In this document: positions 5,773 through 32,000 of the stretch, one piece after another
Numbering within the stretch: the stretch's first letter is position 1
Layout of the letters: every line of letters begins with the position of its first letter
Assembly (NCBI GenBank): GCA_965227835.1
Contig: OZ245768.1
Span: forward strand, 1,080,001-1,112,000
Source: Candidatus Saccharimonadota bacterium
Lineage (GTDB): Bacteria; Patescibacteriota; Gracilibacteria; BD1-5; UBA6164
DNA: 32,000 nucleotides
Reading direction: 5' to 3'
Notes under the pieces: generated by a model
Told to the model about the DNA's origin: nothing
The model's input: the letters and a program-made list of their open reading frames with translations, nothing else
Database searches by the model: none
Position numbers and translations under genes: made by a program

Positions 5773-6085
5773 ATTTTAAAATTAATACTTTAAAAAACAA
5801 GAAGTATTATAATTTAAAGAAGGTTTTTTGCAAAAAATTTAGAGAATGTTTGTATGTATTTTATCAATTTAAAATACAAATTTTATTATATCAAATTTAA
5901 AAACGATAAAATATCCTCTTAAAAACTAAATCTAAAAAAATACGGTATAATATTAAAATTTTATCAATATTAGGATAAATTTCTACTTCTCATTTAAAAC
6001 AATATTTTGTCAACTTAATTTTTTGGAAATAAAAAATTACTTATGATAAAATAATAAAAGCAATAAAAATAAAAACAAAAACAAA

Positions 6086-7006
6086 ATGACAAACGAAAAA
6101 AAAGATATCTTTGATATTTTTGAAGATATAAAACAGGAAGAAAAAGAAGTAAATATAGATTTTTCTTATCAAACAGAAAATATAAATTATAATACATACA
6201 GCTTCAATTATAAAATAAAAAAACAAATAAAAGCATTAGTAATATTAAAAAACTTATTGAAATATATTTCTACAAGCTTTTTGATATTTGCTGTTTTAAT
6301 TTTAACTACAAACTACTCAGCATATATAGAATTGCTTAAAAGTGATCTATATTCAGATAAAATACAAAAAGAATCAAGTTCTCTTATAAATTCGGTAGAA
6401 GCTTCAAAAATAAAATCCAGTATACAAGAAAAAGAAGAAATAAAAAAAAGAGTAGATGAAGAAATATCAAAATCAAAAAAATCAAAATATTCTTTAAAAA
6501 ACTTATCCCTTGAGACAAACAAGGAAAAACCAAAATTAGACATAGAGATAACACCATATGAAAACAGAATAATAATACCTAAAATCACAAAAAATATACC
6601 TGTATTGGACCTAAAGCAAAAAAGTGTATCTTGAGAGAAAGAGCTTGAAGATATTTTTATGAAAGAGCTTGAAGATTGAGTAGTTAGATATCCCGGTAGT
6701 TCGAAACCTGGAAAAAATTGAAATACATTTATTTTTGGACATTCATCAAACTATCCTTGGATAAAATGAGATTACAATGATGTTTTTGTAAATTTAAATA
6801 AACTTGAATATCAAGATGAGGTCATACTTTATTATGAACAAGAAAAATACACTTACAAAATAAAGGAAAAAAAAGTTATAAAACCAGGGCAAACTGATAT
6901 TTTAAAAAGGAATAAAAACAAAGATGAAATAACATTAATGACTTGTTGGCCTATTGGTACGACTCTTAACAGGTTAATAGTAATATGAGAAAGGGTTGAA
7001 ATATAG
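6086..7006 (+). CDS. Sortase-family transpeptidase (306 aa)
   Basis: The track ORF 6086-6634 continues through TGA to TAG 7004-7006. It has an N-terminal TM segment (STSFLIFAVLILTT), a catalytic His (FIFGHSS), the TLxTC motif (ITLMTCWPIGT) and a downstream Arg (LNRLIVIGE). Confidence 0.75.
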
Positions 7007-7023
7007 TTTAAAATAAATTATTT

Positions 7024-7296
7024 ATGATAGAAATAAACTACACATACAATTCAGTTGAAAAAATATTTAATGATGTAATACTGATAAAAGATTTTGATTT
7101 GATTTGATATTCAATACTTATTTCATTTTTAATTTTTTTCTTTATTAGTGTTACATATATACTACCTACTTTGTATATTTTTAAAGAAGAATATATAAAA
7201 AACAGAGAGAAAAAATCAAAAAAACTCCTTTTAAAACAAATAGTTATGCAAAAGGAGCTAGAAGATGAAATACTTAAAGAAGTTAAAAAGCATTAA
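7024..7296 (+). CDS. Small single-pass membrane protein (90 aa)
   Basis: ATG at 7024 to TAA at 7294-7296, with one TGA. It has a TM segment (ILISFLIFFFISVTYILPTLYIF) and then a Lys/Glu-rich tail. It lies 18 nt downstream of the sortase gene. Confidence 0.4.
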
Positions 7297-7329
7297 AGAT
7301 AAACTAGAATAATATTTTCAAAAAAATCA

Positions 7330-7405
7330 TGGAGCCATCAACGAGACTTGAACTCGTGACCTCTCCCTTACCATGGGAGTGCTCTACCAGCTGAGCTATG
7401 ATGGC
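7330..7405 (-). tRNA. tRNA-Thr (anticodon GGU), CCA encoded
   Basis: The reverse complement, GCCATCA-TA-GCTC-AGCTGGTA-GAGC-A-CTCCC-ATGGTAA-GGGAG-AGGTC-ACGAG-TTCAAGT-CTCGT-TGATGGC-T-CCA, folds as a canonical cloverleaf. The anticodon-loop positions 34-36 read GGT. Confidence 0.9.
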
Positions 7406-7435
7406 AGAAATTTTAAAAAAAATAACTTTTCTTTT

Positions 7436-7466
7436 CAAAAAAGCCATTCTAAAAAATAGAATGACA
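7436..7466 (-). terminator. Intrinsic terminator candidate downstream of rpmA
   Basis: On the minus strand, GTCATTCTA-TTTTT-TAGAATGGC is followed by a TTTTTT run, about 40 nt after the rpmA stop. Confidence 0.45.
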
Positions 7467-7501
7467 AAAGTAGCTATTTTTTATTTAAATTGTTTCAAAA
7501 T

Positions 7502-7774
7502 CTAAACTACAGAAACATATTTTTCTTTATAAATTCTACCATCAAATCTAGTCCTGTTTTTTTCAGTAAAAACTACATTTCATTCTTTAGTAGCAAATAA
7601 GGTAAAATCATGTCCTTGTCATACACCATCTCAAGGCCAAAATTTATTACCTTTTTGTCTAACAATAATATTTCATGCTATAGCTTTTTGTCCTCAAAAT
7701 AGTTTAACACCAAGTCTTTTGGCTTTACTATCTCTACCATTATTGGTGGATCATTGGGCTTTTTTGTGAGCCAT
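7502..7774 (-). CDS. rpmA: 50S ribosomal protein L27
   Basis: [61 protein letters not shown] matches L27 nearly position for position against E. coli ([28 protein letters not shown]...). TGA sits on the conserved Gly residues. Confidence 0.9.
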
Positions 7775-7942
7775 ATTTGTTTAAAATTATTAAAATAAAA
7801 TTTATATGCTTTTCTAGTAGTTTAATCAATTATCATTTTTTGATCTCCTATAAATATAAGACTTTTCTATACAACACGGGATTTTAGTCCTTTTTATTCT
7901 TTATCTCAATGTTTAAGTATTAAGGTTTAATAATTACCCTAG

Positions 7943-8145
7943 TTCTCTATTTTTTCTGTTCTATCACCTCTGTTCTGTTCCCTCTCCTTAAAGGAGAGGG
8001 TTAGGGTGAGGTTAATTTGACTTAGGGTGAGGTCTGCTCAAGTTAGCATAAGGTCTGTTCAAGAAAGGCTAGGGAATAGATTAAGATTTTTCAAAGAGTC
8101 AAAATCAAAAAGTATTCAATATTAGTAAGGGGCCAAGACACCTTA
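7943..8145 (+). repeat. GC-rich structured intergenic repeat, copy 2 (between rpsG and rpmA)
   Basis: CT arm (ttctctattttttctgttctatcacctctgttctgtt). Perfect hairpin CCCTCTCC (7980-7987) / GGAGAGGG (7993-8000). G-rich arm (ttagggtgaggttaatttgacttagggtgaggtctgctcaag). A terminal hairpin TAAGGGGCCAAGACACCTTA lies at 8126-8145. Confidence 0.8.
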
Positions 8146-8154
8146 TCTTTTGGA

Positions 8155-8586
8155 CTACCTAGCAAACCTAGCAAAAGCCTTATTGGCTTCAGCCATTTTG
8201 TAAACTTCCATTTTCTTTTTTATAGAATCTCCAGTTTCATTTGCAGCATCTATCAATTCTCAAGCAAGAAGTACGGGAAAACTAGCACCTTTTTTCTTTC
8301 TAGCTGCATCAAGTATCCATCTAGATGCAAGAAAAAGCTGTCTTTTAGTTTTAACTTCTTGTGGTACTTGATATATAGAACCTCATACTCTTCTAGGTCT
8401 AACTTCTATTTTTGGCATAACATTTTCCAAAGCTCTGATAAATATCTCTTTTGGTTTTTTCTGTCATTTAGATTTTATAACTTCAAAAGTTTCTTGCATA
8501 AGGTTATTAGCTAAAGATTTTTTACCATTTAGCATCACATAATTCGTAAACTTTGCCAAAAGGCTTTCAATTTTTGCATTTTCCAT
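8155..8586 (-). CDS. rpsG: 30S ribosomal protein S7 (143 aa; lacks the usual Arg-rich N-terminal tail)
   Basis: [18 protein letters not shown]...[18 protein letters not shown]...[12 protein letters not shown]...[15 protein letters not shown] aligns with S7 throughout. An in-frame TAA at 8623-8625 upstream rules out an N-terminal extension. Confidence 0.9.
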
Positions 8587-8730
8587 ATTTTTAAAATAAC
8601 AATTAATAATTATAAACGAAATTTAAAATATTTTCAGCAATTGTTAAACTTACTCTTTTAAATTTCTTTAGGGATAAATTTAATTAACAAATCTTTATCA
8701 CTATTCAAGATCTACTCAAAACAAATTTAA

Positions 8731-8910
8731 TCCTATTCTATCATCCCTTTGATCTATCACTTCTATTCTATCCTCTATTATTTCTGTTCTATTCCCTCTC
8801 CTCCAAGGAGAGGGCTAGGGTGAGGTGGAGAGAGGGTTAGATTAGGGTTAATTTTAGGTTAGGATGAGGTCTTGCCTAAGCTAGGGTTAAGTTTGCTCTA
8901 GCAAAGTCTT
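8731..8910 (+). repeat. GC-rich structured intergenic repeat, copy 3 (between rpsL and rpsG)
   Basis: CT arm (tcctattctatcatccc...ttctattctatcctctattatttctgttctatt). Hairpin CCCTCTCC (8794-8801) / GGAGAGGG (8807-8814). G-rich arm (ctagggtgaggtggagagagggttagattagggtta...ggatgaggtcttgcctaag). Confidence 0.8.
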
Positions 8911-9000
8911 TTCTAGGTTATTACAATGTCTTATTCTGTCATAACCAAAATATTGCTCGAATCAAAATAAGACTTACTAATTGGAACAATATTTCAAATC

Positions 9001-9417
9001 CTACTTAGGTTTTTTAGAGCCATATTTAGATCTACCTTGCTTTCTGTTAGCTACACCTTCACAATCCAAAACTCATCTAACTATATGATATCTAACTCAA
9101 GGTAAATCTTTTACCCTACCTCATTTAATAGCTACAACAGAGTGTTCTTGTAAATTATGACCTTCTCAGCCAATATAAGCATTAACTTCATATCAATTAG
9201 TAAGCCTAACTCTTGCAACTTTTCTAAGAGCAGAATTAGGTTTTTTAGGTGTTGCTGTATAAACCTTTACACAAACTCCTCTTTTTTGAGGACACCCTCA
9301 ATCTATAGCAACTTGTCTTTCTTTCAAAGAATTTTTAGTTACTTGCAAAGCTGGAGATTTACTCTTTTTGTGGGGAGTCTTTCTTTTTCTTTTTAGTAAT
9401 TGGTTAATAGTTGGCAT
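9001..9417 (-). CDS. rpsL: 30S ribosomal protein S12
   Basis: [60 protein letters not shown] is near-identical to E. coli S12. Six in-frame TGA all fall on Gly (for example 9166-9168, 9097-9099, 9073-9075). Confidence 0.95.
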
Positions 9418-9464
9418 AATTTAGTTTAGTAAATATTTAAGTTTCAAAATATATTAGAATTATA

Positions 9465-9863
9465 TTACCTTTTAGACCATTGCATTCATTTTCTAGCTTT
9501 ATGTTTTCATGGTTTTTTCCTTTCAACTTTTCTTGAATCTCTTGTAAGAAATCAAGCTTCTTTTAATATAGGCCTAAGTGATTCATCTTTAGATACAAGT
9601 GCTCTTGAAATACCTAATCTAATAGCTTGTGCTTGAGCTGAATCTCAAGATCAAGAAACTTTAATATCCAAGTAAAAGTTGTCTTTTTGTTTAGTAAGTT
9701 TTAAAGGAGAATAAACAACATCAAATAAATCTGTTCTTGAAATATATTCACTTATATTTCTTCCATTTATTATATCACTTCATTTTCATTCAAACATTTT
9801 TACTTGTGCTGAAGCTGTTTTTCTCTTTCAAATAGAATATGTATATTTAGCTGTTTTAGCCAT
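9465..9863 (-). CDS. rpsI: 30S ribosomal protein S9
   Basis: GKRKTASAQVKMFEGKG...GGDSAQAQAIRLGISRALV...[33 protein letters not shown] carries the S9 hallmarks, including the C-terminal ...SKR. Confidence 0.9.
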
Positions 9864-9877
9864 GGTTTAAAATAAAA

Positions 9878-10312
9878 TTATAATTGTATAGTAGTAGGTT
9901 TTTGTGCAACAAAACAGTGAGTCTCTCACTCAAAACCTTTTAGTCTAGAAATCATAGATTTTCTTAGTTTATTTTTTGGAAGCATACCCGAAACAGCCAA
10001 TTCTAAAGCTTTTAGTGGTTTTTTAACTAACATATCTTCCAAAGAAATTTGTTTAAGTCATCATAAATATCAACTATGTCTATAATAAATCTTATCTGTA
10101 AGTTTCTTTCAAGTTACATTGAATTTATTAGCATTTATGACAACAACATAATCTCCATTATCTACATACGGAGCAAAGTCTGGTTTATTTTTACCTTTAA
10201 GAAAAATTGCTATTTTGGATGCAAGTCTACCTAAAGTTTGTCATTTTGCATCTATAATATACCATTTTCTTTCATTAGATTTAATTTGTTTAGGCATTAT
10301 AGTTTTCATCAT
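9878..10312 (-). CDS. rplM: 50S ribosomal protein L13
   Basis: [48 protein letters not shown]...YYRHSGYLGGLK is the canonical L13 sequence. Confidence 0.9.
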
Positions 10313-10327
10313 TTTAAATTTATCTAA

Positions 10328-10690
10328 TTAAATTAATTCTAGCTTAACAAGTTTAGCATTATCTCATACTCTGTATTTTATAGGTATGATTCTTGTAAAT
10401 CAAGAAGTTTTTTTATCTTTATACTTAGGTGCTACATTCCTAAAAAGCTCTAAAGATGAGTCCTTTGTATAAATTATACTATTGGAAAATCTTATAGCAT
10501 TCATTTCATCTTTCGTATTAACAACATTTATCAACTTATCAATTATAGGTATGATAGATTTTGCTCTTTTTTCTGTAGTTTTTATAGATTTATGAAGAAA
10601 AAAAGAGGTTACTAAATTTCTCTTCATAGCATCTCTATGAGCAAAACTTTTATTGTTGAATTTCAAGTATTTTCTAACTTTATGTCTCAT
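10328..10690 (-). CDS. rplQ: 50S ribosomal protein L17
   Basis: The track ORF 10400-10690 (MRHKVRKYLKFNNKSFAHRDAMKRNLVTSFFLHKSIKTTEKRAK) continues through TGA 10400-10402 into GFTRIIPIKYRVGDNAKLVKLELI, ending at TAA 10328-10330. Confidence 0.9.
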
Positions 10691-10733
10691 TTTTAAGTAT
10701 TTAGATTGTAATTATTAATTTTTCAGACTCTTT

Positions 10734-11714
10734 TTAATCATCTCAAAGTAATCTAAGCCCTCTATCTGCCAAAGCAGCTCTAATTTCAGTCATAGCTTTC
10801 TTTCAAAATCATTTTATAGAAGAAAGTTTTGTTTCTGTACATTTAGTCAATTGTTCAACAGAAAGTACAGATCAATTTATAAGAGCATTTAGTGTTCTAG
10901 GGGATAATCCCATAATTTCAATAGGAGTATATGTTTCTTTTTCTAGTTCTACTTTTATCTCTTCTTTTTCTTTTTTAAGTAAGGTTCTTACATCTGATAT
11001 AAAGTTTCATCATACTTGTAATCATTCTTCATTGAATAGTCAAAAATAAGATTTAAGCATATCAGAGGAAAACTTAAGAGCTTCTACAGGAGTAATACTG
11101 GAGTTTGTGGATATTTCAATTATAAGTTTTTCTAGGTTTGATATATCTCAACTTCTGGTTTTTTCTACAAAATATTTTACATTGGAAACAGGAGAAAAAT
11201 TTGCATCAACAAGTATAATATTAGGATCTTCTTCTACAGCTTTCAAATCTTCAATACTTTTGTACCCTACATTTTTTTCTACTCTTATATCTATATCAAT
11301 TTCTAATCAATCTTTATCAATTTCTGTGATATATAAATCTTTATTAAGGATTTCTATACCTCAAGAAAGCTTTATATCTGAAGCTGTAACAACTCAAGCT
11401 TTCTTTTTATTTAATTTAATCCATTCAATACCTTCTTCTTTTTTGTCTAATATTAAGTCTTTTAAATTTAAAATTATATCAAACATACTGTCTTTTATCC
11501 CTGGTAAGGTTGAATACTCATGAGATACTCATTTTATTTTTACTCATGTTATCTTCGTACCAGGAAGACTAGAAAGAAGGACTCTTCTTAAAGAGTTTCA
11601 AACTGTTACACCATAACCTCTAGGAAGAGGTCAAACTTCAAACGATGACACATTACTTTCATTATCTTTTTGAGAGATTTTAGGAACTCATATTAGTTCA
11701 TGGATGATATGCAT
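10734..11714 (-). CDS. rpoA: DNA-directed RNA polymerase subunit alpha
   Basis: N-terminal domain: [28 protein letters not shown]. C-terminal domain: IEIMGLSPRTLNALINGSVLSVEQL...IKGFGKKAMTEIRAAL. It occupies the canonical position between rpsD and rplQ. Confidence 0.9.
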
Positions 11715-11749
11715 ATTGTTTTTGAATTAAGAAAATAACATAATTTTTA

Positions 11750-12373
11750 CTATTTTGAGTAAAATTCAACAATTTTTTGTATATCTATAATAGCTTCAAA
11801 ATCTTCCTGTGTAGGCTCAGATTCTATAGTAATTTTCAATTTATTAGCATCAACTGATATCCACTTAGAATTTGTAATCTTACCTTTATTAGATTTGGCA
11901 AATTCTGATAATTCAGAGGCAAGACTTTTGTAAAGATTACTTTCTCTAACTCTATCCCTTAGCTCAATAGTATCTCCTGGTTTTAAATTTATGGAAGGGA
12001 CTGTAACTTTGACTCCATTTAATTTAAAATGAGCATGGCTAGCAAACTGCCTAGCTTGCATCCTAGTTCTAGCAAAATTAGCCCTGTATATAACATTATC
12101 TAGTCTAAGCTCTAGTAGTTTTAGCATTTTTTCTCAAGTAGTACCAGAACTTCTAGATTTTTGAGCTTTTTTAAAGTATGATGCAAACTGCTTTTCGGAT
12201 AAAGCAAACATTCTTTTTGCTAGTTGTTTTTTTCTCAGTTGAGAACCAAATTCACTAGATTTTCTAGATCTAGGTAGAGTCTTTTTTGATTTGCTAAGAT
12301 CATATTTTTCTGTTCAAAAAAGATTAATTCATTCTCTTCTACAGAGTTTTTTCTTTGGTCAGGTATATCTCAT
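11750..12373 (-). CDS. rpsD: 30S ribosomal protein S4
   Basis: The track ORF 11750-12127 (S4 domain: LELRLDNVIYRANFARTRMQARQFASHAHFKLNG) extends upstream through TGA to MRYTGPKKKLCRREGINLFG. Confidence 0.9.
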
Positions 12374-12409
12374 TTTTTAATTAAAAGTTATCAAATTAAT
12401 TTTTAGATT

Positions 12410-12802
12410 TTATAATTTTCTAATTTTTTTCTTCCTACATCAGTTATGAGGTATTGGTGTTATATCAAATATAGCATCTATATCAACTCAACCAGAAAGT
12501 AATCATCTAATGGCTTGTTCTCTTCAAACTCAAATTCATTTTACATAGACTGTAACATTTTTTAGTCCGTGTAGTGTTACTGCTTTACTTGTAGCTTGTT
12601 CAGCTACGACTTGAGCCGCATAAGGAGTTGCTTCTCTAGCTCATTTAAATCAAGCACTTCATCAAGTACCCCAAGTAAGGGTATTTCATTTTTCATCTGT
12701 AATTGTAACAATAGTATTGTTGAAAGAAGCTTGAATATGAGCTTGTCATTGTTCTATAACTTTTCTTGTTTTTTTACTTTTTTTAACTGGAGTTTTTGCC
12801 AT
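12410..12802 (-). CDS. rpsK: 30S ribosomal protein S11
   Basis: [46 protein letters not shown]...GVGREQAIRGL...ITPIPHNGCR is the canonical S11 sequence. Confidence 0.9.
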
Positions 12803-12839
12803 ATAGTTTATAAAGTTTTAAAATAATAAATTTATAATT

Positions 12840-13208
12840 TTATTTTTTCTTACCTGCAATTGCTACAGATTTTCATTTTCTTGTCCTAGCATTGGTTTTT
12901 GTGGATTGTCATCTTACAGGAAGCCTATTTCTATGCCTAATTCATCTGTATGATCTAATTTCTTGAAGTCTTTTTATATTTGAAGTTACAAGCCTTCTTA
13001 GGTCTCATTCAACAGTATGATTAGCTTTTATTTCATCTCTTATTAAATCAAGTTGTTCTTCTGAAAGGGTTTCAATTTTGAGAGTTTTTTCTATTCAAAC
13101 TTTTTCCAATATTTTAGACGAATTACTTCTTCCTATACCATATATATAAGTTAAAGCGATTTCTACATGTTTACCTTTTGGTAAATTAACTCAAGCGATT
13201 CTAGCCAT
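12840..13208 (-). CDS. rpsM: 30S ribosomal protein S13
   Basis: [28 protein letters not shown]...[27 protein letters not shown] is the canonical S13 sequence. Confidence 0.9.
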
Positions 13209-13261
13209 TTTGTTAGATTTTAAATTAAAAATTAAAACAACCTAGTATTTTCAAATAGGTT

Positions 13262-13375
13262 TTATCCTTGTCTTTGTTTGTGTTTAGGATTTTTACAAAT
13301 AACCCTAACAATATTTTTCCTTTTAATAACCTGGCAATTAGAACACATAGGTTTAACAGAAGCTCTTACTTTCAT
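13262..13375 (-). CDS. rpmJ: 50S ribosomal protein L36
   Basis: [37 protein letters not shown] is the canonical 37-aa L36, with the C-x2-C...C...H zinc pattern. Confidence 0.9.
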
Positions 13376-13408
13376 AATAATTATCTTTAATATAAATTTT
13401 TTAAAAAA

Positions 13409-13639
13409 TTACTTATTTCTAAAAGTAATTCTTCATTTTGTTAAATCATAGGGAGTTAACTCTACTTTAACAGTATCTCATTCTATAAGTCTAATATTGT
13501 TGTTTCTCATTTTTCAGCTTAGGTATCATTTGATAATATTTCATCAAAAATCGTCTGGTAATTGTATATCAAAAACCAGACCAGGTAAAGCTTTGACGAT
13601 TACTCATTCTACTTCTATTTTATCTTCTTTACCAGACAT
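13409..13639 (-). CDS. infA: Translation initiation factor IF-1
   Basis: IEVEGVIVKALPG..F.IQL....[39 protein letters not shown] aligns with E. coli IF-1. TGA falls on Gly of ISGKMR, LTGD and SKGRI. Confidence 0.9.
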
Positions 13640-13770
13640 ATAAAAAGGGATGTTTGTAGTTAAATAACCGTGACATTATATAAAGATATATTTAAATGCA
13701 AATTTTTTGTAAATTTTTATTAAAAAACATCAAGAAATCTGCTAAATATAGATAAAAATTAATATCATAC

Positions 13771-13912
13771 TAGCTCTCTTCGAGCAAGACCTCACTCTAA
13801 AACTCAACCTAACCCTCTCCAACTTCACCTCACCCTAGCCCTCTCTATCTATACCTCACCCCCAACCCCTCTCCTTAGAGGAGATGGGAGTAAAACAGAA
13901 GGAATAGAATAT
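13771..13912 (-). repeat. GC-rich structured intergenic repeat, copy 4 (inverted orientation)
   Basis: The reverse complement reads ttctattccttctgttttactcc-CATCTCC-tctaa-GGAGAGGG-gttgggggtgaggtatagatagagagggctagggtgaggtgaagttggagagggttaggttgag...gagtgaggtcttgctcgaag. The architecture matches the other copies. The plus-strand hairpin arms are at 13867-13874 and 13880-13888, with a 1-nt bulge. Confidence 0.75.
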
Positions 13913-13987
13913 AAATTGTTATTACATAGTAGAGAATAATAAAATAAATTTTACTCTATAAATTATTTTTTAATCTATTGTTTCCCT

Positions 13988-14012
13988 TCAACAGAGGGCT
14001 TTAGCCCTTTGC
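13988..14012 (+). repeat. 25-nt hairpin motif TCAACAGAGGGCTTTAGCCCTTTGC, copy i
   Basis: Stem AGAGGGC/GCCCTTT with a TTTA loop. Near-identical copies lie at 22669-22693 and 25989-26013. Degenerate copies lie at about 14196-14230 and 14244-14275. Confidence 0.65.
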
Positions 14013-14158
14013 CCATTAACAATATTTGCATTCAGCCCTTTACCCATTAACAATATTTGTATTCAATCCTTTGCTCAATTAACAATATTTGCATTTAGCC
14101 CTCTGCTAATTAACAATATTTGCATTCAGCCCTTTGCATAGTAAGATTTTTGCAAAAT
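14003..14158. repeat. Tandem array, about 4.5 copies of a 31-bp unit (AGCCCTTTGCCCATTAACAATATTTGCATTC)
   Basis: Units start at 14003, 14034, 14065 (32 bp), 14097 and 14128 (partial). The core TTAACAATATTTGCATT is conserved in four units. The array sits in the divergent intergenic region between infA and the pilin gene. Confidence 0.8.
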
Positions 14159-14167
14159 AAAACTTAA

Positions 14168-14195
14168 TTGCAAATTATCCTAAATTTAGTATATT
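14168..14195 (+). promoter_or_regulatory. Candidate sigma-70-type promoter for the pilin-fibrinogen gene
   Basis: TTGCAA (14168-14173), a 16-nt spacer, then TATATT (14190-14195), about 135 nt upstream of ATG 14329. Chance matches are easy in AT-rich DNA. Confidence 0.3.
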
Positions 14196-14328
14196 CCTTT
14201 AGGCAGATGGCTTTAACCATTTGTCCCATATTACATTATATCCTTTCAACAGAAAGCTTCATCCCTTTGCCTAGTAGAAATTTTGACAAAAAACTATGAT
14301 AAACTTTTAACTCTTAACTCCCCCTCAA

Positions 14329-15606
14329 ATGAAAAACAAACTAACCCTCCAACCAAAAAAAGCATTCACCTTAGTAGAGCTAATAGTAGTAGTAACAATA
14401 CTAGCAATAATCTGAACAATATGATTTGTAAGCTATACAGACTATCTATCTTGAGTAAGAGATACAAATAGAACAGTACAACTAGAAAGTATATGAGATT
14501 GATTAAAACTATCACTAACAAAATGAAGACTTCCAATACCCGATGACTACATAGAAGTTAAAACTAGTTGAGATACTATAGCATATCAAGGATATGCATG
14601 AGAAGAAGTACTAAAAAAAATTAAATATGACAAAGAAGGTAAAGATCCACTAGATAATACATATTTTTCATACTATGCTACAGATAATAGAAAGAACTTT
14701 CAATTAATGGCATTACTAGAAGAAACAAATGAAACTGTAAGTTTATATAATAGAAGAGAAGTATTATCTGAGGATATAGATTATTCAGACAGACAAGTTA
14801 AGGTAAGTTGAAAGAAGCTATGAATATTAACTGGGGGTTGAGATAATTTAAATGTTCCAGTACAAGAAATATGAGAGATAAAAGATAATTGAGAATTAGA
14901 TATAGCTACTACACCAGAAGAATATATATCCCATATAGATGATAATGATAAGATTAGTTGAAATTGAAGTGAATTAATTAAATCAATATATAATGCTAGT
15001 TGTAAGAGGATTTTAGAATCTAGTTTAGATAATTGAGATTGAATTTATAAGATAAATCCTGCTGGAACAGAAGAATTTGAGGTTTATTGTGATATGGAAA
15101 CTGATGGGGGTGGGTGGACTTTAATAGAGAGTTTTTCTTTAGAAAACAAAGATATTTATACATTTGGAGCTTTCTATGAAGATTTACCAAGAAACGAAAA
15201 TACTCCAAAAAATTTTGAAGACTTTAGATTGTCTTTAAGTAAAATGGAAGACTTAGTAGATATTTCAACTGAAGTTAGAGCTGGATGTAATATGGAAATA
15301 AATCCATCAAAAGACTATGTATTTTTTGATTTGTCTGAATTAAATATTTTAACATTTCAAGGAATTGGAGAGTATAAAAAAACAAAAAAATTAAATGTAA
15401 GAGGAAATTTTTATGAAAATGAAGATCTAAAATGGTGGCAAGGAAATAATATTGGTAATAATGATCATCTACATATAGATTCAAATATTGATAATATTCC
15501 TAACTCAATTTACTCAGAAGATAACTTCGGCCATTATAGGTATATAAACCAAGAGTTTTCTTGTACTTCTTCTCAAAGTTCAACAACTAATTGGTATTTA
15601 AGATAA
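14329..15606 (+). CDS. Type IV pilin-like protein with a C-terminal fibrinogen-like YCDxxxxGGGW domain (425 aa)
   Basis: ATG at 14329 is the first start after an in-frame TAA at 14308. I checked all triplets to 15094 and found no TAA/TAG. The gene joins the track ORF 15094-15606 in frame. The N-terminus, MKNKLTLQPKKA/FTLVELIVVVTILAII, is a prepilin cleavage/methylation motif with Glu at +5. Residues encoded at about 15000-15130, [43 protein letters not shown], match the opening subdomain of fibrinogen-related domains. Confidence 0.8.
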
Positions 15607-15634
15607 AAATTTACAAATCATAATCCAAAAACAT

Positions 15635-16759
15635 ATGAACAAAACAAACGAATCTTCTAGATTAATATTATTTAATCTAAGCATACTTACAATAATAGCA
15701 GTAGCATATCTGATGTATATATGAAGCTCTCTTATACTACCTTTTGTAATAGCACTTCTAGTAAGCTTTTGAATAATATCAGTATCTGGATTTTTCAGTA
15801 ATATGGGTATGAATAAATTTTTTTCATACCTGTTTAGTGCATTTTGTTTTTTTATATTTTTCTTCCTCTTATGATGGATAATAAACAACAACATAGAAGA
15901 AATAACAAAACCAAAAAACATAGAATTTTACCAAAACAGATTTGAAGAAATATTCTCTCCGATGCTAGAATACACAACCAAACTTAATATAAACCAAGAA
16001 GAACTAAGACAAAAATTTTTAAAAAGCATTGATTTTTCAAATGTATTTTCTAGTGTAACCCTAGTTATAACCTCCATACTATCAAGTGCCTGACTAATAA
16101 TAATATACATATTGTTTATACTCCTAGAATATAGATTCTTTCAAGAAAAAATCTCACTTATATCTCCCGATGTAACAAAAAGAAAAAAGATATCTTCTGT
16201 AATAGAAAAAATAAAAAACGATGTAAAAACATATTTTTTGATAAAAAGTCTCACATCATTTTTTACAGGACTTTTGACATATATAGTGCTTTCTATATTT
16301 TCTGTAGATTTTGCTATGTTTTGGTCTTTTACAATATTTATACTAAACTTTATCCCTACAATTTGATCAATAATATGAGTATCAATAGTTTCTGTTTTTG
16401 TAGTAATACAAATATGATTCACTGCAGTGCTTTTCTTGGTTATTCTAAGTTTGATATGAATACAAACACTTATATGAAATATAATAGAACCAAAACTTAT
16501 GTGAAATAAACTAAATCTAAGCCCTCTTGTCATAATACTATCTCTTTGATTATGGTGAGCTATATGGTGAGTAGTTTGAATGCTTCTATCAGTACCAATA
16601 ATGGTAATAATAAACATTATCCTATCAAATTTTGAATCAACTAAACCCATATCTATAATGCTAAGTGAGAAATGAGTACTAGGAGATGAAAAAGAAATAA
16701 ATATAGCAAACACTAAAAAAGAACTCTATAAATTAATTAAAGACAATTTAAAGAATTAA
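15635..16759 (+). CDS. AI-2E family transporter (PerM/UPF0118-type permease), 374 aa
   Basis: It has about 8 TM segments and family motifs: FILNFIPTIGSIIGV and [38 protein letters not shown]. It contains the track fragment 16112-16366 in frame. Confidence 0.8.
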
Positions 16760-16872
16760 AAATCTAAAACTCTATTTTTTCTAACTCTGCTCTAATATAA
16801 ACATTGATGTTAGATTCAAACTAAAAAATATTACAATATATTTGTAGTCTAAAAATGATAAAAACACAAAAC

Positions 16873-17088
16873 CTATTTATAAGATTTATTGATGCAAAGA
16901 AGTTTAGAAAGGAATGCAAATGGCTGAAGACATCTGTTTAATAAAATTTTGGATAAATATAAAAAAGGAATAATGCTCTTTGTAGTGAATATGGTAGAAG
17001 CATAAAATACAAGATTTAAAATTTTCAAATTTATGAGAAAAATAAAAAACTCTTTTCTTGAACTAATACTTTTTATAATATCTTTCAT
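16873..17088 (-). CDS. Doubtful small hydrophobic ORF (71 aa from ATG; 115 aa if TTG 17220 is used)
   Basis: This is the only open frame in the 16760-17330 gap. I recognised no homology and saw no RBS. Its composition is typical of random AT-rich ORFs. Confidence 0.2.
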   Translation of the reverse strand: MKDIIKSISSRKEFFIFLINLKILNLVFYASTIFTTKSIIPFLYLSKILLNRCLQPFAFLSKLLCINKSYK

Positions 17089-17330
17089 ACTCACTTTTTT
17101 TAGATCAATAAAGTCTTTTTTAGGGCTAAAAAAAGTTAAATGAAATTTATTTTTTGATAGTCTGGATTTTACCTTTAAAATATGGCCCAAGTATTTTTGG
17201 TCCAAACCAAGCCTATACAAACTATTTTCTTTTTTCCCAGATTTACTTAAATTTGTACTAAAAAAGTAAAATATTTAGAGCTTTTTATACAAGAATTTAA
17301 AAGTAAGGATATGATGGAGAAATGTTAATA

Positions 17331-17577
17331 TCTGTTCTATCCCTCTCTACTCTGTTCTATTTCCCTCTCCTCCAAAGGAGAGGGTTAGGGTGAGGGCTTT
17401 ACGGGTTAGGATTAGGTTTTGCTGTAGAGGGTTAGGATTAGGTTTTGCTGGAGAGGGGCTCTCGGGTGAGGTCTCGGGTTAGATTGAAATCTTGAGCAAG
17501 TAAAAATCTGGGTTTAAGAATAAAATCTGGAATAAATTTATTCTTGTAAAAATATGCAAGGGGTCAAGACCCCTTGT
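17331..17577 (+). repeat. GC-rich structured intergenic repeat, copy 5 (most complete)
   Basis: The CT arm has tctgttctat twice. The hairpin is CCCTCTCC (17363-17370) / GGAGAGGG (17377-17384). The G-rich arm, gggttagggtgagggctttacgggttaggattaggttttgctg, contains an internal direct repeat of about 25 bp. It continues as gggtgaggtctcgggttag. A terminal perfect hairpin CAAGGGG-TCAAGA-CCCCTTG lies at 17558-17577. Confidence 0.85.
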
Positions 17578-17622
17578 CCTAAAGAAAAACCAAGTAAAAA
17601 ATTTAAAAGAAAATTATAAAAA

Positions 17623-18771
17623 ATGAGCAAAAAAGCTTTTACATTAATAGAAATAATGATATGAATCTTAATCAGTTCTATGATAATAGTAGTCTGATTT
17701 CAGTCATTTAGCTATATAATGGTTTGAAAAGTAAAACTTATAGAATCTACCAATATAGAAAAAGAAAGTTTTAGTTTTATGCAAAAATTCTTTGAAGAAA
17801 TAAAAGCTTGATGATTAATAGACTATGAAGAATATTTCAATAGAGCTATGATAAATTGAAACTCATCATGAAACTCACTATATTCTTCCTGACACTTCAA
17901 GAAAAAAAGCTGATTTTGAAACTTTTGAATAAATGGAACTTGATGAACAACTAGTTACTGAAATTGATTTTATTATTGTAGAAGTGATGGTTGAAAAAAA
18001 ATGACAGGAACATGATGTATAGCTGAATTTAATACCACATGAGCTTCTGTTTTTTGAACAAATCAAAGATATGGGCAATATAGTTTTCATTTTATAGACT
18101 ATAACTCAAATTTTGATAATGACTGATGAGATGAAGATTGAGATGGAAGTATAATTTGAGATGATGATGATGAGTATTTAGGAAAATGACCAAATGTATT
18201 TGATTCTTGAGAAGATGTAGTAGAACTATATCTAATATCTGCAGATAAAAAAAGAAGAACATTTTTCAGATGGAAAGTAGTTGATGATCCCTATATAGAA
18301 AATTCAGTAGCTAGCTGTGATTTTACCGATCCAAAAAGTCCAACAGGGTCAGGATGTCTAGGAACAATAGAATTTTTAAAATTAGACTGAAAAGACTGGG
18401 GCTTTGATCATGATATAAGTAATTCAGCAAAAAATTGAGAATATGATTGAGTAGTTGATACTTGGCTTATAGATAGTGATTTCTCTGAATTTGCAGGGCA
18501 AACTTGAAATAAAATAGCATGAAGTGATAATATAGACTATTGGATACCTCTGTTTCCAGATTCTATAAGTGTAAAGTCATTTGATGTGAGAGTTTATCCA
18601 CACAAGAATATAAAAGATGCTTGGAGGGAGCAATGAATTGATTTATCTCCGTATGTTAGAGTAAGTATAACTCTTACCCCCAGCTGGAAAATAAAAAAGA
18701 AAATAAGATGAAAAGTCCCAGAATTTAATATAAGTACAACTATTAATTTAACAGATATATTTAGTAGATAA
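17623..18771 (+). CDS. Minor (pseudo)pilin-like protein with a prepilin N-terminus (382 aa)
   Basis: MSKKA/FTLIEIMIGILISSMIIVVGF is a class III signal with Glu at +5. The large variable domain includes an Asp-rich loop, DNDGGDEDGDGSIIGDDDDEY (18115-18177). I checked in-frame triplets from 17623 to about 18300 and saw TGA only. The stop is TAA at 18769-18771. Confidence 0.7.
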
Positions 18772-18773
18772 AT

Positions 18774-19646
18774 ATGAAAAAAAACAAAAAATGATTGTCC
18801 TTAGTCGTTGCTATATCTATGGCATTACTTATGTGACTTTTGGCAATATATATTTTGGAGTATATGATACCTTTTTCCAAAAACACAAAAGGTATAGAAA
18901 ATAGTGTTTGAGCATATTATCTGGCAGACTCTGCAATAGAAGATGCCCTTTATTCTATGAGCTGACAAACACTAGGATATAAAAAAACAGATTCACTATC
19001 AGGAAATAGAGATTATTCTATAGCTATGTCAGCAAATTGAAATACCTTGCCACCTTCTGGAGAATGAAATAGTGAGTTTGATAAAGATTACAATATATTG
19101 AGATTATGAGACCCTATTCAAATAGAAGTTTGAAGTGGGGCAATTACTAGTAGTTCTAATTTTAAAATATATATCAAAGTACCAGACCTAAATTCAGCAA
19201 GTGAACAAGATGAGACATTAAGTTGAGCAAGTTTGAAGATAGCAAATTGGCAATTATCCTCAAGTAGTGATGTATTAAATGCAAGTGGTAGTCAAATAAC
19301 AGCTACAGAAATAAATAATGATTGAAGTAGTTGAATAAGTTTATGAAATAAAGTTTGATCCAATTTAGCAAATGATTCAAAAACTTTTTCTAATTTCTAT
19401 TGATCAGAGTGTAATGGTTCATGAGAAGTATGTAAACTAAAAATTTCAGTAATTAACAAACTTGAATTAACAAACGGAACAAATGTGCCTTATTTAGAAT
19501 GGAAGATAGTAAATGGTAGTAGTATACCTCTAAGATATACAATAATAGACACAATTTGAAGATCCTATGGTTTTAGAAAAATCCTAAAAGTGAAAGTCCC
19601 TCAACAAACTGTAAATGAAGCTTTTGATTTTACCGTATTTCAGTAA
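18774..19646 (+). CDS. PilX/ComGG-like minor pilin candidate (290 aa)
   Basis: It starts 2 nt after the previous stop. The N-terminus, MKKNKKG/LSLVVAISMALLMGLLAIYILEY, is a hydrophobic pilin-like helix without Glu at +5. That feature and the position after a minor pilin fit PilX-type proteins. Confidence 0.5.
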
Positions 19647-19751
19647 AAAGGTTATTTTTGTTGATATAATCTCTTAAGAGACAATTTAAAATTATACAGA
19701 TCCTCTCTAAAGAAAATATTTAAATACCTACAATGGTTTTTTCAATTTTTA

Positions 19752-19779
19752 TTGACAAAAATTTATTTTAGCATAATAT
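19752..19779 (+). promoter_or_regulatory. Near-consensus sigma-70-type promoter
   Basis: TTGACA (19752-19757), a 16-nt spacer, then TAATAT (19774-19779), about 35 nt upstream of the SD-led ORF at 19815. Confidence 0.45.
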
Positions 19780-19814
19780 ATACTAACTTTATTCACTTAA
19801 AAAAGGAGTTTGTT

Positions 19815-19880
19815 ATGAACATAACTACAATTACTGTGTTTAGAAAATTTCTTGATTCATTTTTCAACTGTGAGGTCTAA
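19815..19880 (+). CDS. 21-codon leader-like micro-ORF (MNITTITVFRKFLDSFFNCEV)
   Basis: It is preceded by AAGGAG (19803-19808) at 6-nt spacing, the only strong Shine-Dalgarno I found in the window. It ends 2 nt before the next ATG. Confidence 0.3.
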   Translation: MNITTITVFRKFLDSFFNCEV

Positions 19881-19882
19881 AA

Positions 19883-20122
19883 ATGTTTAAAACTATAAAA
19901 GATATAGACAGTAAGTTCAGCAAAAAAATAAGCAATTTTAGATTTACTCCTCTTAAATTAATTATAATTCTAGGATCAACATCTGTATTTTTTACTTGTT
20001 GTTATCTACTTAGAGGATTTTTAGTTGAGAATCCTGCTATATTTCTTGTTGTAGTAATTTTGTTCTATGCTATCACTTCATTTTTTAGAGATCTTTTAAA
20101 AGATGATTTAAAAATAGGTTAA
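19883..20122 (+). CDS. Small two-TM membrane protein (79 aa)
   Basis: It is a standard-code ORF in the track and contains no TGA. GAGGT lies 6 nt upstream of the ATG. The TM segments are LIIILGSTSVFFTCCYLL and AIFLVVVILFYAITSFF. It is followed by a strong terminator. Confidence 0.5.
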   Translation: MFKTIKDIDSKFSKKISNFRFTPLKLIIILGSTSVFFTCCYLLRGFLVENPAIFLVVVILFYAITSFFRDLLKDDLKIG

Positions 20123-20186
20123 TTTTCAGGATATTTTCTAAATACAAAATGGTCTTGTAAACTATAAAGTAAGAGAGTCTATTTTA

Positions 20187-20584: not shown

Positions 20585-22480
20585 ATGTCTAAAGATATAA
20601 ATAAAATAAATAATTGATGAGATGCTCCCAAAGAAGACAAAGTATTGTTTGAGTTAATTAAAACTAAACAAACTATTTGAAATATACTAGAAGGAGATAA
20701 TGGAAGCTTATTGTCATTAGAGAATTTGAAAATAAATAAAGAAACTTGAGAAATTATAGGTTGAATTGCAAAAAGCTTGCAACAGGAAAAATTTCCATTT
20801 TGGAAACAAGAAGATAAATATGTACTAATAAAAGCAAAGTGAAAATATAACTATATTGATATTAAAAGTATTGATAGGGATAAAAAAACATGAGAAATAC
20901 TAATTTTTTCTATAAAAAATAACACCCCTATTGAAAGAAATTATTTTTATAAAGAAGCAGGTAAATATAAGAAGCTTAAAATAGAATGAATTGATAGCAT
21001 AGAAAAAGCATGTAGTATAAAATTAAATGAACAAACAGGAGAAATAGTAGGATGACGCTTTGAAGAATCTATTAATAGCTCTTGAGTTTTCATCAAAAAA
21101 GATAATAAATTTGTTAAATTAGAAATAGAATGAGTTGGTAATATTAGGAATATACATAGTTTAAAAATAGATGAAGAAACTTGAGAAATAATAGATTGAG
21201 TAGTAATATGTAAAAACCTCAAAACATTAGCATTTCAAAAACAATGAAATAAGTTTATTAAATTAGAGATAGAATGAATTAACCATACCATGGATATAGA
21301 AAGTTTAAAAATAGATGAAAAAACATGAGAAATATTAAGATGAATAGCCCTAATAAATGGATTTGACACTTGAAACTTTATGCCTTTTTACAGAAAAAAT
21401 GGTAAACTGACCAAATTAGAAATAGAAGGAATTGATGAAATTTTAGGTATGCATGATTTAAAAGTAGATGATGAAACCTGAGAGGTACTAGCTTGAATTG
21501 CAGTAGATAGAAATCAAGGACAAACTGCATTTGAAAAACAATGAAATAAATATGTAAAAATAAAAATAGAAGTAGAATGAGTTGGTGAGATAAAATGTAA
21601 GTATGATCTAGCTACAAATGACGAAAATTGAGAGTTATTAGCTTGAACTGGTCTAGATAAAAAATGATACCAAATACTATTTTATAAAAAATGAGATAAA
21701 TATGAAAAATTAAAAATAGAATGAATTAATAATGTAGAAGGAATAGAAACTATAGAAATGGACGAAGCAAAAAGAGAATTAATAAGTTGAGTATTAATAA
21801 TAGAAAATTGCAATCTTGTAGCTTTTTTAAAAGATAATGATAAATATATTAAGTTAGAGATAGAATGAATTAATGAAATTAAAAATATATATAATATAAC
21901 TTCAAATAAAGAAACAGGAGAGATATTTAGCTGAATAGCTGAATATGGAGAACTTAAAACTATACCTTTTTTCAAAAAAGATAATAAATTTATTAGGTTA
22001 GAAGTAGAAGGAATTGATGAAATACAGGATACAAATAACTTAAAAATAGATGATGAAACTTGAGAGGTTTTAACCTGAATTGCAATATATAAAGACTATT
22101 ATGAAATACCATTTTTTAAAGAATGAAGTAAATATGTTAAATTGAAGATAAAATGAGTTGATGAAATAATAGATACACCTATCAATACATTAAAAATAAA
22201 CAATAAAACTTGAGAAATATTATTTTGATTTGCGGTGTGTGAAAACTGATATGAAATACCATTTTATAAAAACTGAAATGAATATGTTAAATTGGAAGTA
22301 AAATGAGTTGACGAAATAGTAAATACGAAAAATTTAGAAATAGACTATGAAGCTTGAGAGTTATTAACTTGAGTATTAACAGATGGAATTTGAAACGAAA
22401 TATGATTTTATAAAAGATGAGGTGAATATGTAGTTAAAAAAGACAAAGAATACGATTTTGTAGAAGAGGATGTTTGGTAG
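20585..22480 (+). CDS. Tandem-repeat protein, about 12 repeats of about 48 aa (631 aa), function unknown
   Basis: ATG at 20585 to TAG at 22478-22480, in frame (1896 nt), open only with TGA as a sense codon. The repeat consensus is about K[YF]VKLEIEG[IV]DEIxxxxxLKIDxETGE[IV]LxGIAxxxxxxxxxF[FY]KKxN. There is no signal peptide. Confidence 0.75.
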
Positions 22481-31700: not shown

Positions 31701-32000
31701 AGTCTTTTGATATATTGTGTTCTTCTTGATAGTTTTGAATAGCTTGTTTAAAATCTTCAAACACAAAAGGATCTTCTACTCCCAAAGTTTCTTTTGCTAG
31801 TCTCAAAGCCTCACTTCTAGATATACCTATTTTTTCAAGATTTGAGGAAGTTAGTTGCATTTCATGGTTTGAAAGTCTTTCTTGAGTTTCTTCTATAATA
31901 TCTTCTTGGGCATTATTTACAGCTTCTAATTCTCATGTTTCTGCTTGCTCTTGAGATTCTGGCCAAACTTGTACTGGTCTTACCAAGCCTATACTTCATT
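28792..32000 (-). CDS. Giant membrane-associated protein, unknown family, more than 1069 codons; 5' end probably off-window
   Basis: I enumerated every in-frame triplet from TAG 28792-28794 to the window edge (32000) and found no TAA/TAG. It absorbs the track fragment 30394-30651. It contains a PG_binding_1-like motif (FEDFKQAIQNYQEEHNISKDGILGKETYIEM, 31669-31761), TM pairs (MGMLFLTLSLIFGIP, LTLGFLFLGGG), an acidic Pro/Asp/Thr linker and a glycine-zipper hydrophobic block (GGGVTMVGATAATIFFAPGVLVGGAIIGGGAVAGTTL...ALIGGVGSISA, about 29480-29940). An internal start (for example ATG 31858-31860) cannot be excluded. Confidence 0.7.

Follow-up and report, generated by a model that had tools for sequence, protein, structure and literature searches.

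What kind of protein is encoded by a gene that is broken up by stop codons under the standard bacterial code, and where does its C-terminal part come from? These questions are raised by positions 14329-15606 of a 32,000-nt stretch of contig OZ245768.1 (positions 1,080,001-1,112,000; assembly GCA_965227835.1), here called the window, whose own coordinates are used throughout. A preliminary description had read the gene as encoding a prepilin-type protein whose C-terminal domain begins in the manner of fibrinogen-related domains, and this is now supported by four hidden Markov models. The reading that we favour, with a probability of roughly 70%, is that the gene encodes a modular type IV pilin displayed at the tip of a filament as an adhesin, belonging to a family with exchangeable tails and carrying a tail derived from archaea. 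The locus is chiefly of interest for these cassette-like tails and for two mapped recent imports of Woesearchaeota-type tails, revealed by missing reassigned codons.

All long open reading frames of the window are interrupted by TGA in the same manner as the pilin gene, and in 25 other genes of the window TGA accounts for 398 of the 609 glycine-position codons (65%), the remaining 211 being GGN. [quoted passage not shown] The in-frame TGA codons of the pilin gene are confined to codons 29-238 and are its sole stops under the standard code. The gene had been said to be invisible with table 11 except for its end, which is correct (the table-11 reading frame is the TGA-free end of the gene, starting at M256), and to contain about 20 TGA codons, which is slightly too many. 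It is divided as follows.

14329-15606, + strand: modular type IV pilin gene, one intact reading frame in code 25 (425 aa, 17 TGA = Gly codons, stop TAA)
14329-14364, + strand: predicted class III leader peptide MKNKLTLQPKKA (aa 1-12), with the predicted cut before F13, from PF07963 and TIGR02532
14365-14994, + strand: pilin module or head (aa 13-222), a hydrophobic α1 helix and a family-conserved globular part, from sequence identity to relatives
14998-15126, + strand: opening (A) subdomain of the fibrinogen-like domain (aa 224-266), from NF040941 and PF00147, holding C225 and C254
15106-15603, + strand: imported tail, the B/P-equivalent part of the fibrinogen-like domain (aa 260-425), TGA-free and recognised by its nucleotide identity to Woesearchaeota copies

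The prepilin motif reads MKNKLTLQPKKA/FTLVELIVVVTILAIIGTIGF, the slash marking the predicted cut, after which the N-terminus would be FTLVELIVV, with F at +1 and E17 at +5. The segment KKAFTLVELIVVVTILAII (aa 10-27, 14356-14410) and the YCDxxxxGGGW motif (aa 253-263, 15085-15117) lie exactly where the preliminary description had placed them. When the table-25 translation is searched, as had been proposed, all four models score above their curated cut-offs. PF07963 (N_methyl) gives 26.8 bits (cut-off 21.2) over aa 10-31 and TIGR02532 22.9 bits (cut-off 16.3), which bears out the prepilin signal and α1 helix; together with the short basic leader, F+1, E+5 and the hydrophobic stretch, these scores make the protein a prepilin-type protein, whose leader would be removed before F13. 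NF040941 (GGGWT_bact) gives 63.6 bits (cut-off 30) over aa 224-266, model positions 1-46, which makes the protein a member of the bacterial YCDxxxxGGGW family. PF00147 (Fibrinogen_C) gives 30.9 bits (cut-off 22), only over aa 235-267 and profile positions 14-47 of 221; the cysteine pair C225/C254 and the signature identify the opening A subdomain, as had been claimed. The B/P subdomain is not recognised by PF00147, the match covering only profile positions 14-47 here and at most 4-63 in relatives.

The stretch of about 190 residues between the two motifs, previously taken for a spacer, is instead the pilin module conserved throughout the family: an alignment of 105 sequences shows a large number of almost invariant columns there, and conservation is strong over aa 35-222. 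Its match to GspG (aa 12-129) is weak (E = 0.0097), and the whole-family profile matches the α1 helices of geopilin and PpdD. The protein combines the IPR012902 motif with a domain from outside type IV filament biology, and is thus a modular pilin in the sense of Raynaud et al. 2021, who introduced the term, proposed such proteins as tip-located adhesins and list the combination IPR012902-IPR002181 in Dataset S1 for 8 proteins, plus 2 with GspG (PMC8179133). Many relatives are moreover already named by NCBI or JGI as 'fibrinogen-like YCDxxxxGGGW domain-containing protein' or 'prepilin-type N-terminal cleavage/methylation domain-containing protein'. The fusion, earlier described as uncharacterised, is therefore not new as such; that statement holds in that no fibrinogen-type modular pilin has been studied experimentally. 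Literature searches on YCDxxxxGGGW, on modular pilins in Patescibacteria and on the sample ERZ25074195 discussed below returned nothing, and no paper treating the pilin family itself was found. The novelty of the fusion is modest, and the new part is the tail.

A search of 5.8 billion proteins returned at least 557 relatives of the pilin (E ≤ 0.001), typically of 350-500 aa, and all matches that carry an organism name are Candidatus Gracilibacteria. The best matches are 88% identical to the query at a coverage of only about 63%, most of the mismatch being an artefact because the database entries translate TGA as Trp. Once Trp and Gly are counted as one letter, head identity to the query is 93-96% for P0001-P0006 and tail identity 1-27%; at the nucleotide level the head is 93.5% identical to that on the related contig L003 (blastn). 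Across 111 members the mean identity is 0.50 for heads and 0.18 for tails, with a correlation of r = 0.11. Pairs with a head identity of at least 0.93 mostly have tail identities of 0.01-0.27, while P0003 and P0043 combine distant heads (0.55) with similar tails (0.72).

The tails of the family begin right after GGGW and nearly all finish with hydrophobic-x-Arg/Lys, for instance GMIFVR or WYLR. This ending recalls the final MKIRP strand of animal fibrinogen-related domains. The classifiable tail types are fibrillar-collagen C-propeptide-like (P0002, COLFI positions 51-225 of 233, E = 4e-8), CBM_4_9 (P0075) and Laminin_G_3 (P0106). The whole-family profile finds fibrinogen-related domains over their entire length (those of angiopoietin-2, FGL1, tachylectin-5A and fibrinogen beta) at E values of 1e-9 to 1e-11, a signal that stems largely from tail types other than that of the window. 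The pilin thus belongs to a large Gracilibacteria family composed of a constant head and interchangeable tails that start inside the YCDxxxxGGGW motif.

The tail of the window's pilin is foreign. Codons 257-425 contain no TGA and 11 GGN, against 17 TGA and 5 GGN in the head (Fisher P = 2e-5 against the head; binomial P = 9e-6 against the window background), and the absence of TGA therefore indicates a recent import from a donor with the standard code. The only relatives of the tail above about 50% identity in a set of 1.84 billion representative proteins, or found at all in the search of 5.8 billion proteins, sit on archaeal-type contigs. They are P0008 (83% amino acid identity, in an alignment of aa 239-425), P0121, P0122 and the fragment P0123 (75-80%). 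Their contigs all come from one ENA sample, ERZ25074195, have a GC content of 22-26% and carry archaeal-type genes, including those for ribosomal proteins S6e, S8e, L15e, S4e and L32e, NMD3, a split RpoA and Spt5. EF-2 from contig L006 is 76-84% identical to that of metagenome-assembled genomes of Candidatus Woesearchaeota, and none of 17 genes checked on L001 has an in-frame TGA.

At the nucleotide level, window positions 15041-15607 match the archaeal genes at 82.5-85% (blastn). The tail proper is 84-87% identical to the archaeal copies, which are 84-90% identical among themselves, and because the two ranges are the same the window allele falls inside the archaeal allele pool. Over 116 nt (15327-15442) the window tail matches L007 exactly, and over 94 nt (15260-15353) it matches L005 exactly; it is itself a mosaic of archaeal alleles. 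The ratio of nonsynonymous to synonymous substitution rates in the tail (dN/dS 0.24-0.34) indicates a functional protein. No closer sequence was found in the 5.8-billion-protein set, the 1.84-billion representative set, JGI metagenome contigs or IMG/VR.

In the archaeal proteins the tail follows a head made of an N-terminal transmembrane anchor and a short stalk, without a pilin motif. This head bears at least three different tails, so that the logic of constant head and variable tail operates in both lineages. Neither the archaeal head nor the tail of the second archaeal paralogue in L001 has a counterpart among the 119 Gracilibacteria relatives listed. To judge from these comparisons, the window tail is a xenologue, its source being the alleles of a surface protein, anchored in the membrane, that co-occurring Woesearchaeota (DPANN archaea) carry. 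The donor would have been a Woesearchaeota-like organism with the standard code, possibly acting through an unsampled intermediary.

The Woesearchaeota copies lie at 5909-6793 and 10001-10888 of L001, about 9760-10627 of L005, about 9050-9944 of L006 and 10001-10285 of L007. They are often damaged or unstable: L006 has an in-frame stop, L005 a frameshift at a poly-proline tract (PPPP), and in L007 only a truncated copy is left, in which a TGG has become TGA. In L005 and L007 the copy is adjoined by a gene with an integrase-core (rve) domain. Taken together, this suggests rapid turnover or contingency-type switching.

Both ends of the imported segment could be placed, and the elements concerned are the following.

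15041-15123, + strand: junction segment IYKINP... (about 80 nt), from blastn and alignment A1, a candidate homology anchor for tail exchange
15091-15105, + strand: 5' crossover interval, from alignment A1, inside the YCDxxxxGGGW motif
15601-15606, + strand: 3' joint AGA TAA (final Arg codon and stop), from alignment A2; the blastn match to L004 resumes at 15601 with 97% identity
15635-16759, + strand: gene for an AI-2E family transporter (PF01594, E = 1.6e-47), inside the block 15601-17290

In the junction segment every Gracilibacteria head is 80-85% identical in nucleotides to every Woesearchaeota head, even where the tails are unrelated. Within it, the Cys codon of YCDM (C254) is the last informative site of Gracilibacteria type, reading TGT and not the archaeal TGC, and G260 is the first of archaeal type, reading GAT GGG and not the GAT TGA of the Gracilibacteria copies. 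The crossover falls in 15091-15105 because the window follows the Gracilibacteria paralogues up to C254 and the archaeal genes from G260 onwards. At the other end, AGATAA is the sole sequence common to the archaeal-type tail and the Gracilibacteria downstream flank. A homology anchor at one end and a microhomology joint at the other are what homology-facilitated illegitimate recombination, known from naturally transformable bacteria, characteristically leaves behind, and the tail may have been acquired by this mechanism after DNA uptake.

The surroundings of the gene are composite as well. In a related strain the orthologous locus is represented by L003: window positions 5954-15123 match L003 1562-10792 at 93%, the homology ends exactly behind the GGGW codons and it resumes at 17403-20159 of the window (L003 12356-15149). 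The block 15601-17290, which L003 lacks, has its counterpart at 97% identity beside another paralogue, that of L004. The locus is therefore a mosaic of three parts, an L003-like upstream part, an archaeal-type tail and an L004-like downstream block, and the distribution of the AI-2E block among these contigs implies a rearrangement between paralogous pilin loci. Where the window has this block, L003 holds two small genes (170 and 79 aa).

The pilin on contig L002 (P0002) is a second, independent case of an archaeal-type tail on a Gracilibacteria pilin, with a different type of tail. Its COLFI-like tail has 1 TGA and 10 GGN codons, compared with 20 and 4 in the native tail of L003 and 18 and 7 in that of L004. 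The closest relatives of this tail (77-83% amino acid identity) were traced to sample ERZ25074195 in every case in which their contig was looked up; among these proteins, P0289 is an archaeal head fused to a COLFI-like tail and P0285 adjoins RpoN and TFB genes. Against Woesearchaeota genes of that sample, which have the archaeal head described above, the L002 tail reaches 86-87% nucleotide identity over about 530 nt. A further Gracilibacteria protein with a P0002-type tail, P0006, has W, the letter given for TGA, at several P0002 Gly positions; as read from its database translation, this pattern has the look expected of gradual amelioration.

The tail domain is covered by no Pfam model. An exhaustive HMMER search with aa 266-425 gave 250 representative proteins (E ≤ 0.001, 30-44% identity). 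A word-index search had returned 3 proteins, and the view of the tail as a near-orphan was rejected on the HMMER result. The relatives form two groups. The first consists of prokaryotic surface proteins in which the tail follows a YCDMxTxGGGW motif, some of them large and with LamG, PKD, Big or DUF2341 domains, and the second of proteins from a sponge, cnidarians and a heterolobosean (Oscarella, Nematostella, Exaiptasia, Pharyngomonas), the cnidarian ones being named EGF-like. The domain has many members in Oscarella (sponge), Nematostella and Exaiptasia (P0135, P0143, P0171, P0179), where those of Exaiptasia are named EGF-like, and most animal-type members have VYCDFTSEPG.AWTL in place of the prokaryotic YCDxxxxGGGW-type signature.

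The profile of the tail family aligns with a tenascin domain over positions 8-177 (E = 5e-6). An AlphaFold2 model built from an alignment of tail homologues has a mean predicted local distance difference test score (pLDDT) of 96.8 and a predicted template modelling score (pTM) of 0.92; it supersedes a model of aa 239-425 from the pilin-family alignment, which had a pLDDT of 55 and no significant fold match. The top 50 Foldseek matches in the PDB are all fibrinogen-related domains (ANGPTL3, FGL1, ficolins, fibrinogen, tenascin) or X-type lectins (intelectin-1, XEEL), with probabilities of 0.66-0.99 (at least 0.84 in all but two rows). The fold comparison called for earlier thus recovers only these two classes, and does so remotely, with template modelling (TM) scores of 0.30-0.43. 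Together with the missing Pfam coverage, this agrees with the earlier remark that the C-terminal remainder (about 160 aa here) diverges from the animal domains. Among predicted viral structures the best matches, of which the top seven are significant, are proteins of cyanophages and other phages (TM up to 0.53), named fibrinogen-C, collagen-NC1, F5/8 type C or tail-fibre-like. The tail would thus fit a remote, unannotated branch of the superfamily of fibrinogen, collagen C-propeptide and X-type lectins, apart from the canonical fibrinogen-related domains.

No sequence motif of a Ca2+ site or of an acetyl or carbohydrate pocket was recognised in the tail. The positions that vary among the four alleles are concentrated in aa 341-412 (40 of 77), with 10 of 77 in aa 264-340 and none of the 13 at the terminus. 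The variable stretch forms hairpins and loops at the place of the ligand-binding P subdomain, a clustering that would be compatible with diversifying ligand recognition.

In the mechanism that we favour, a prepilin peptidase would remove the 12-residue leader before F13, and through the α1 helix and the pilin module (aa 13-222) the subunit would become part of a type IV filament. The domain of about 200 residues (aa 224-425) would then be shown outward, most probably at the tip, as an adhesin that binds a ligand on the surface of another cell. Several paralogues per genome would provide a repertoire of binding specificities on one assembly scaffold. The archaeal tail would have been joined to the pilin head by recombination in the junction of about 80 nt, and its other end, at the stop codon, would be the microhomology joint AGATAA. 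Of the mechanisms considered, a tip adhesin has the best support, and we infer it from architecture and family together with the reported expression of type IV pili in Gracilibacteria (PMC11452946).

Several observations weigh against this reading. The residue at -1 of the predicted cleavage site is Ala, where Gly is usual. PilB, PilC, PilD and PilM-O genes are absent from the 32-kb window and from the related contigs L002-L004; a check for the assembly genes, recommended earlier, yielded within the window only a second prepilin-type gene (17623-18771). The archaeal homologues show the same tails on a plain membrane anchor, and surface display alone may suffice. The fold likeness is weak (the TM scores given above, root-mean-square deviations of 8-11 Å and Foldseek E values of 1.5e-3 or worse), the Pfam match spans 34 of 221 profile positions, and a ficolin-like lectin pocket cannot be assumed; we know of no member of the tail family whose ligand is known. 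As to origin, the tail diverges by 13-16% at the nucleotide level from every sampled archaeal copy, so that the actual donor allele is unsampled, and the window's own sampling site is not established.

One alternative is a cell-surface lectin that is never polymerised. Its prepilin-like N-terminus would act just as a signal, as an anchor in the membrane or as a stub of pseudopilin type, and would keep the fibrinogen-like domain at the cell envelope. The Woesearchaeota arrangement, with its transmembrane anchor in place of a pilin motif, and the lack of assembly genes within the window would fit such a protein, and an appendage of 200 residues is bulky for a filament subunit. However, a mere anchor would not need a pilin module of about 210 residues that is conserved, with F+1 and E+5, in hundreds of Gracilibacteria homologues; a further prepilin-type gene lies 2 kb downstream, and type IV pili are expressed in Gracilibacteria (PMC11452946). 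We regard this alternative as unlikely, although it is the strongest of those considered.

A second alternative, to which we give slightly less weight, concerns the origin of the tail: both lineages may have acquired it independently from a third, unsampled source with the standard code, such as a virus, a plasmid or another bacterium, or TGA-free tails may have passed from Gracilibacteria to the archaea. It draws on the facts that no sampled archaeal allele is more than 87% identical overall, that relatives of the tail occur widely among other bacteria and also in early-branching animals, and that rve-domain genes adjoin the archaeal copies (L005, L007) and an IS110-domain gene the L002 pilin. 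The window tail nevertheless lies within the divergence range of four archaeal alleles at two loci and shares the exact runs of 94-116 nt with archaeal copies, and the databases listed above, IMG/VR included, hold nothing closer. A long residence in Gracilibacteria should also have added TGA codons, as in the native tails (20/4 and 18/7), which would be stops in an archaeon.

Import from Woesearchaeota also fits the mapped joints better than an assembly chimera, in which reads of a Gracilibacterium and a Woesearchaeon would have been joined at the YCDxxxxGGGW segment. Such an error could have been favoured by the segment of about 80 nt, similar at 80-85% in both lineages, and by the presence of both lineages in one sample. 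It would require two joints, of which the 3' one is only AGATAA, far under any assembler k-mer, and Gracilibacteria DNA (97% to L004) resumes immediately past the stop codon. The tail is 13-16% off every archaeal copy, the reading frame is intact and an independent contig, L002, shows a like hybrid with a different tail, all of which makes a chimera very improbable. Equally hard to credit is a polymorphic-toxin-like system in which YCDxxxxGGGW marks off exchangeable C-terminal effectors delivered by the pilus: the constant head, demarcation motif, hypervariable C-termini, paralogues and lateral tail exchange do resemble the logic of CdiA and Rhs, but all classifiable tails are of binding type (fibrinogen-related, collagen C-propeptide-like, CBM_4_9, Laminin_G_3), and at the four loci examined the pilin is followed by no conserved small immunity-like gene, the downstream genes being an AI-2E transporter (window, L004), an IS110-domain gene (L002) and genes without a family (L003).

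The remaining features of the locus that relate to the pilin are these.

17623-18771, + strand: second prepilin-type gene, a candidate minor pilin (382 aa, MSKKA/FTLIEIM...; TIGR02532 17.9 bits, cut-off 16.3)
18774-19646, + strand: gene for a 290-aa protein with an N-terminal hydrophobic segment, forming an operon-like pair with 17623-18771; the pair is kept in L003
14003-14137, + strand: array of a 31-nt tandem repeat, AGCCCTTTGCCAATTAACAATATTTGCATTC (4.3 copies, Tandem Repeats Finder score 198), 190-325 nt upstream of the start codon

On the second prepilin-type protein PF07963 scores 20.4 bits, just under its cut-off of 21.2. The 290-aa protein has no family match in the Pfam and NCBIfam scans, and a minor-pilin-like role is possible from the position of its gene. 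The core of the tandem repeat, TTAACAATATTTGYATT, occurs 4 times in the window, always within the array, where 0.34 copies are expected. Among 76 loci it is found only upstream of paralogous pilin genes, at L002 2613-2724, L003 9684-9794 and L004 9729-9745, with 4, 3 and 1 exact cores, respectively. The 31-nt repeat may be a regulatory element shared by the pilin paralogues, either an operator or a phase-variation element. In addition, a C-rich 26-nt repeat is present in 3 copies at 13796-13874, upstream of the pilin, and in 2 reverse-complement copies at 17403-17454, exactly where the homology to L003 resumes; inverted repeats thus flank the strain-variable block of pilin tail and downstream genes. 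The IS110-family gene of L002 (4353-5375; DEDD_Tnp_IS110 and Transposase_20 domains) lies directly 3' of the pilin with the COLFI-like tail.

Ribosomal protein genes and rpoA lie upstream of the pilin on the minus strand, and near the ribosomal protein cluster positions 6086-7006 encode a sortase-domain protein (PF04203, E = 2e-24). Rfam and tRNA scans of the window returned only a tRNA-Thr(GGT), unrelated to the pilin. Positions 20585-22480 encode a protein of 631 aa made of internal repeats (KLEIEGIDEI...ETGE.L.G...), with 44 TGA codons and no family match above cut-off, whose staggered blastn matches to L003 at 66-68% suggest a strain-variable repeat protein. On the minus strand, 26106-28757 and 28792-31986 are adjacent giant reading frames of 883 and 1064 aa with 52 and 67 TGA codons; the former has no significant NCBIfam match and the latter contains a glycine-rich hydrophobic segment.

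Host recognition and attachment in CPR bacteria and DPANN archaea are a central open question, and hardly any of these organisms are cultured. The pilin is a concrete candidate for host attachment, and the type of its tail could become a genomic predictor of host range. The exchange between domains of life is recent, involves two independent tails and has precisely mapped ends, which is unusual where DNA has passed between Archaea and Bacteria. It also illustrates that codon reassignment can trace horizontally acquired segments inside a single gene, an approach applicable to all recoded lineages. The tail itself probably represents an unannotated superfamily branch common to prokaryotes, sponges and cnidarians. 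More tentatively, and with odds that we put at somewhat below even, Gracilibacteria and Woesearchaeota of one community might share a pool of adhesin tail cassettes that is undergoing active recombination. The junction of about 80 nt would then act as a universal docking site across domains, the TGA = Gly code would make the traffic effectively one-way, from standard code to code 25, and the gain of TGA in imported tails would serve as a clock. If so, both ultra-small symbionts may compete for, or share, the same host-surface ligands.

Among known systems, the closest are the modular pilins PilB and PilC of Streptococcus sanguinis, in which the IPR012902 motif and a pilin module are likewise fused to a bulky module from outside pilus biology; there the modules are von Willebrand factor A (vWA) or lectin domains, tip location is proposed and adhesion has been shown (PMC8179133). 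Unlike these, the Gracilibacteria family swaps its module among paralogues, strains and domains of life at a fixed point inside the module. The pilin is also a clear member of NF040941, a model of 46 positions that covers the junction subdomain only, and neither the variable tail nor the fusion to a pilin.

With the animal fibrinogen-related domains (ficolins, tachylectin-5A, angiopoietins, FGL1, tenascins) the protein shares the opening subdomain with its cysteines and signature, whereas in the predicted structure of the tail long β-hairpins and loops replace the region of the ligand-binding P subdomain. The X-type lectins intelectin and XEEL are, with the fibrinogen-related domains, the only folds recovered for the tail, and their match is remote. 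Phage receptor-binding proteins offer another parallel, with a constant N-terminal attachment part and a C-terminal binding domain that is exchanged horizontally, but here the carrier is a pilin, or in the archaeon a membrane anchor, and not a virion fibre, and IMG/VR contains no close relative of the tail.

The arrangement of a conserved 5' part, variable 3' cassettes and a boundary motif is, finally, that of pilE/pilS variation in Neisseria and of polymorphic toxins (CdiA with VENN, Rhs with PxxxxDPxGL). In contrast to pilS, all four Gracilibacteria copies seen are complete genes, and because they are complete and have the repeat core upstream (1-4 copies in the three related contigs) none of them is a silent cassette. 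In contrast to both systems, the exchanged tails are whole binding domains, not variable loops or toxins, and their donors include another domain of life.

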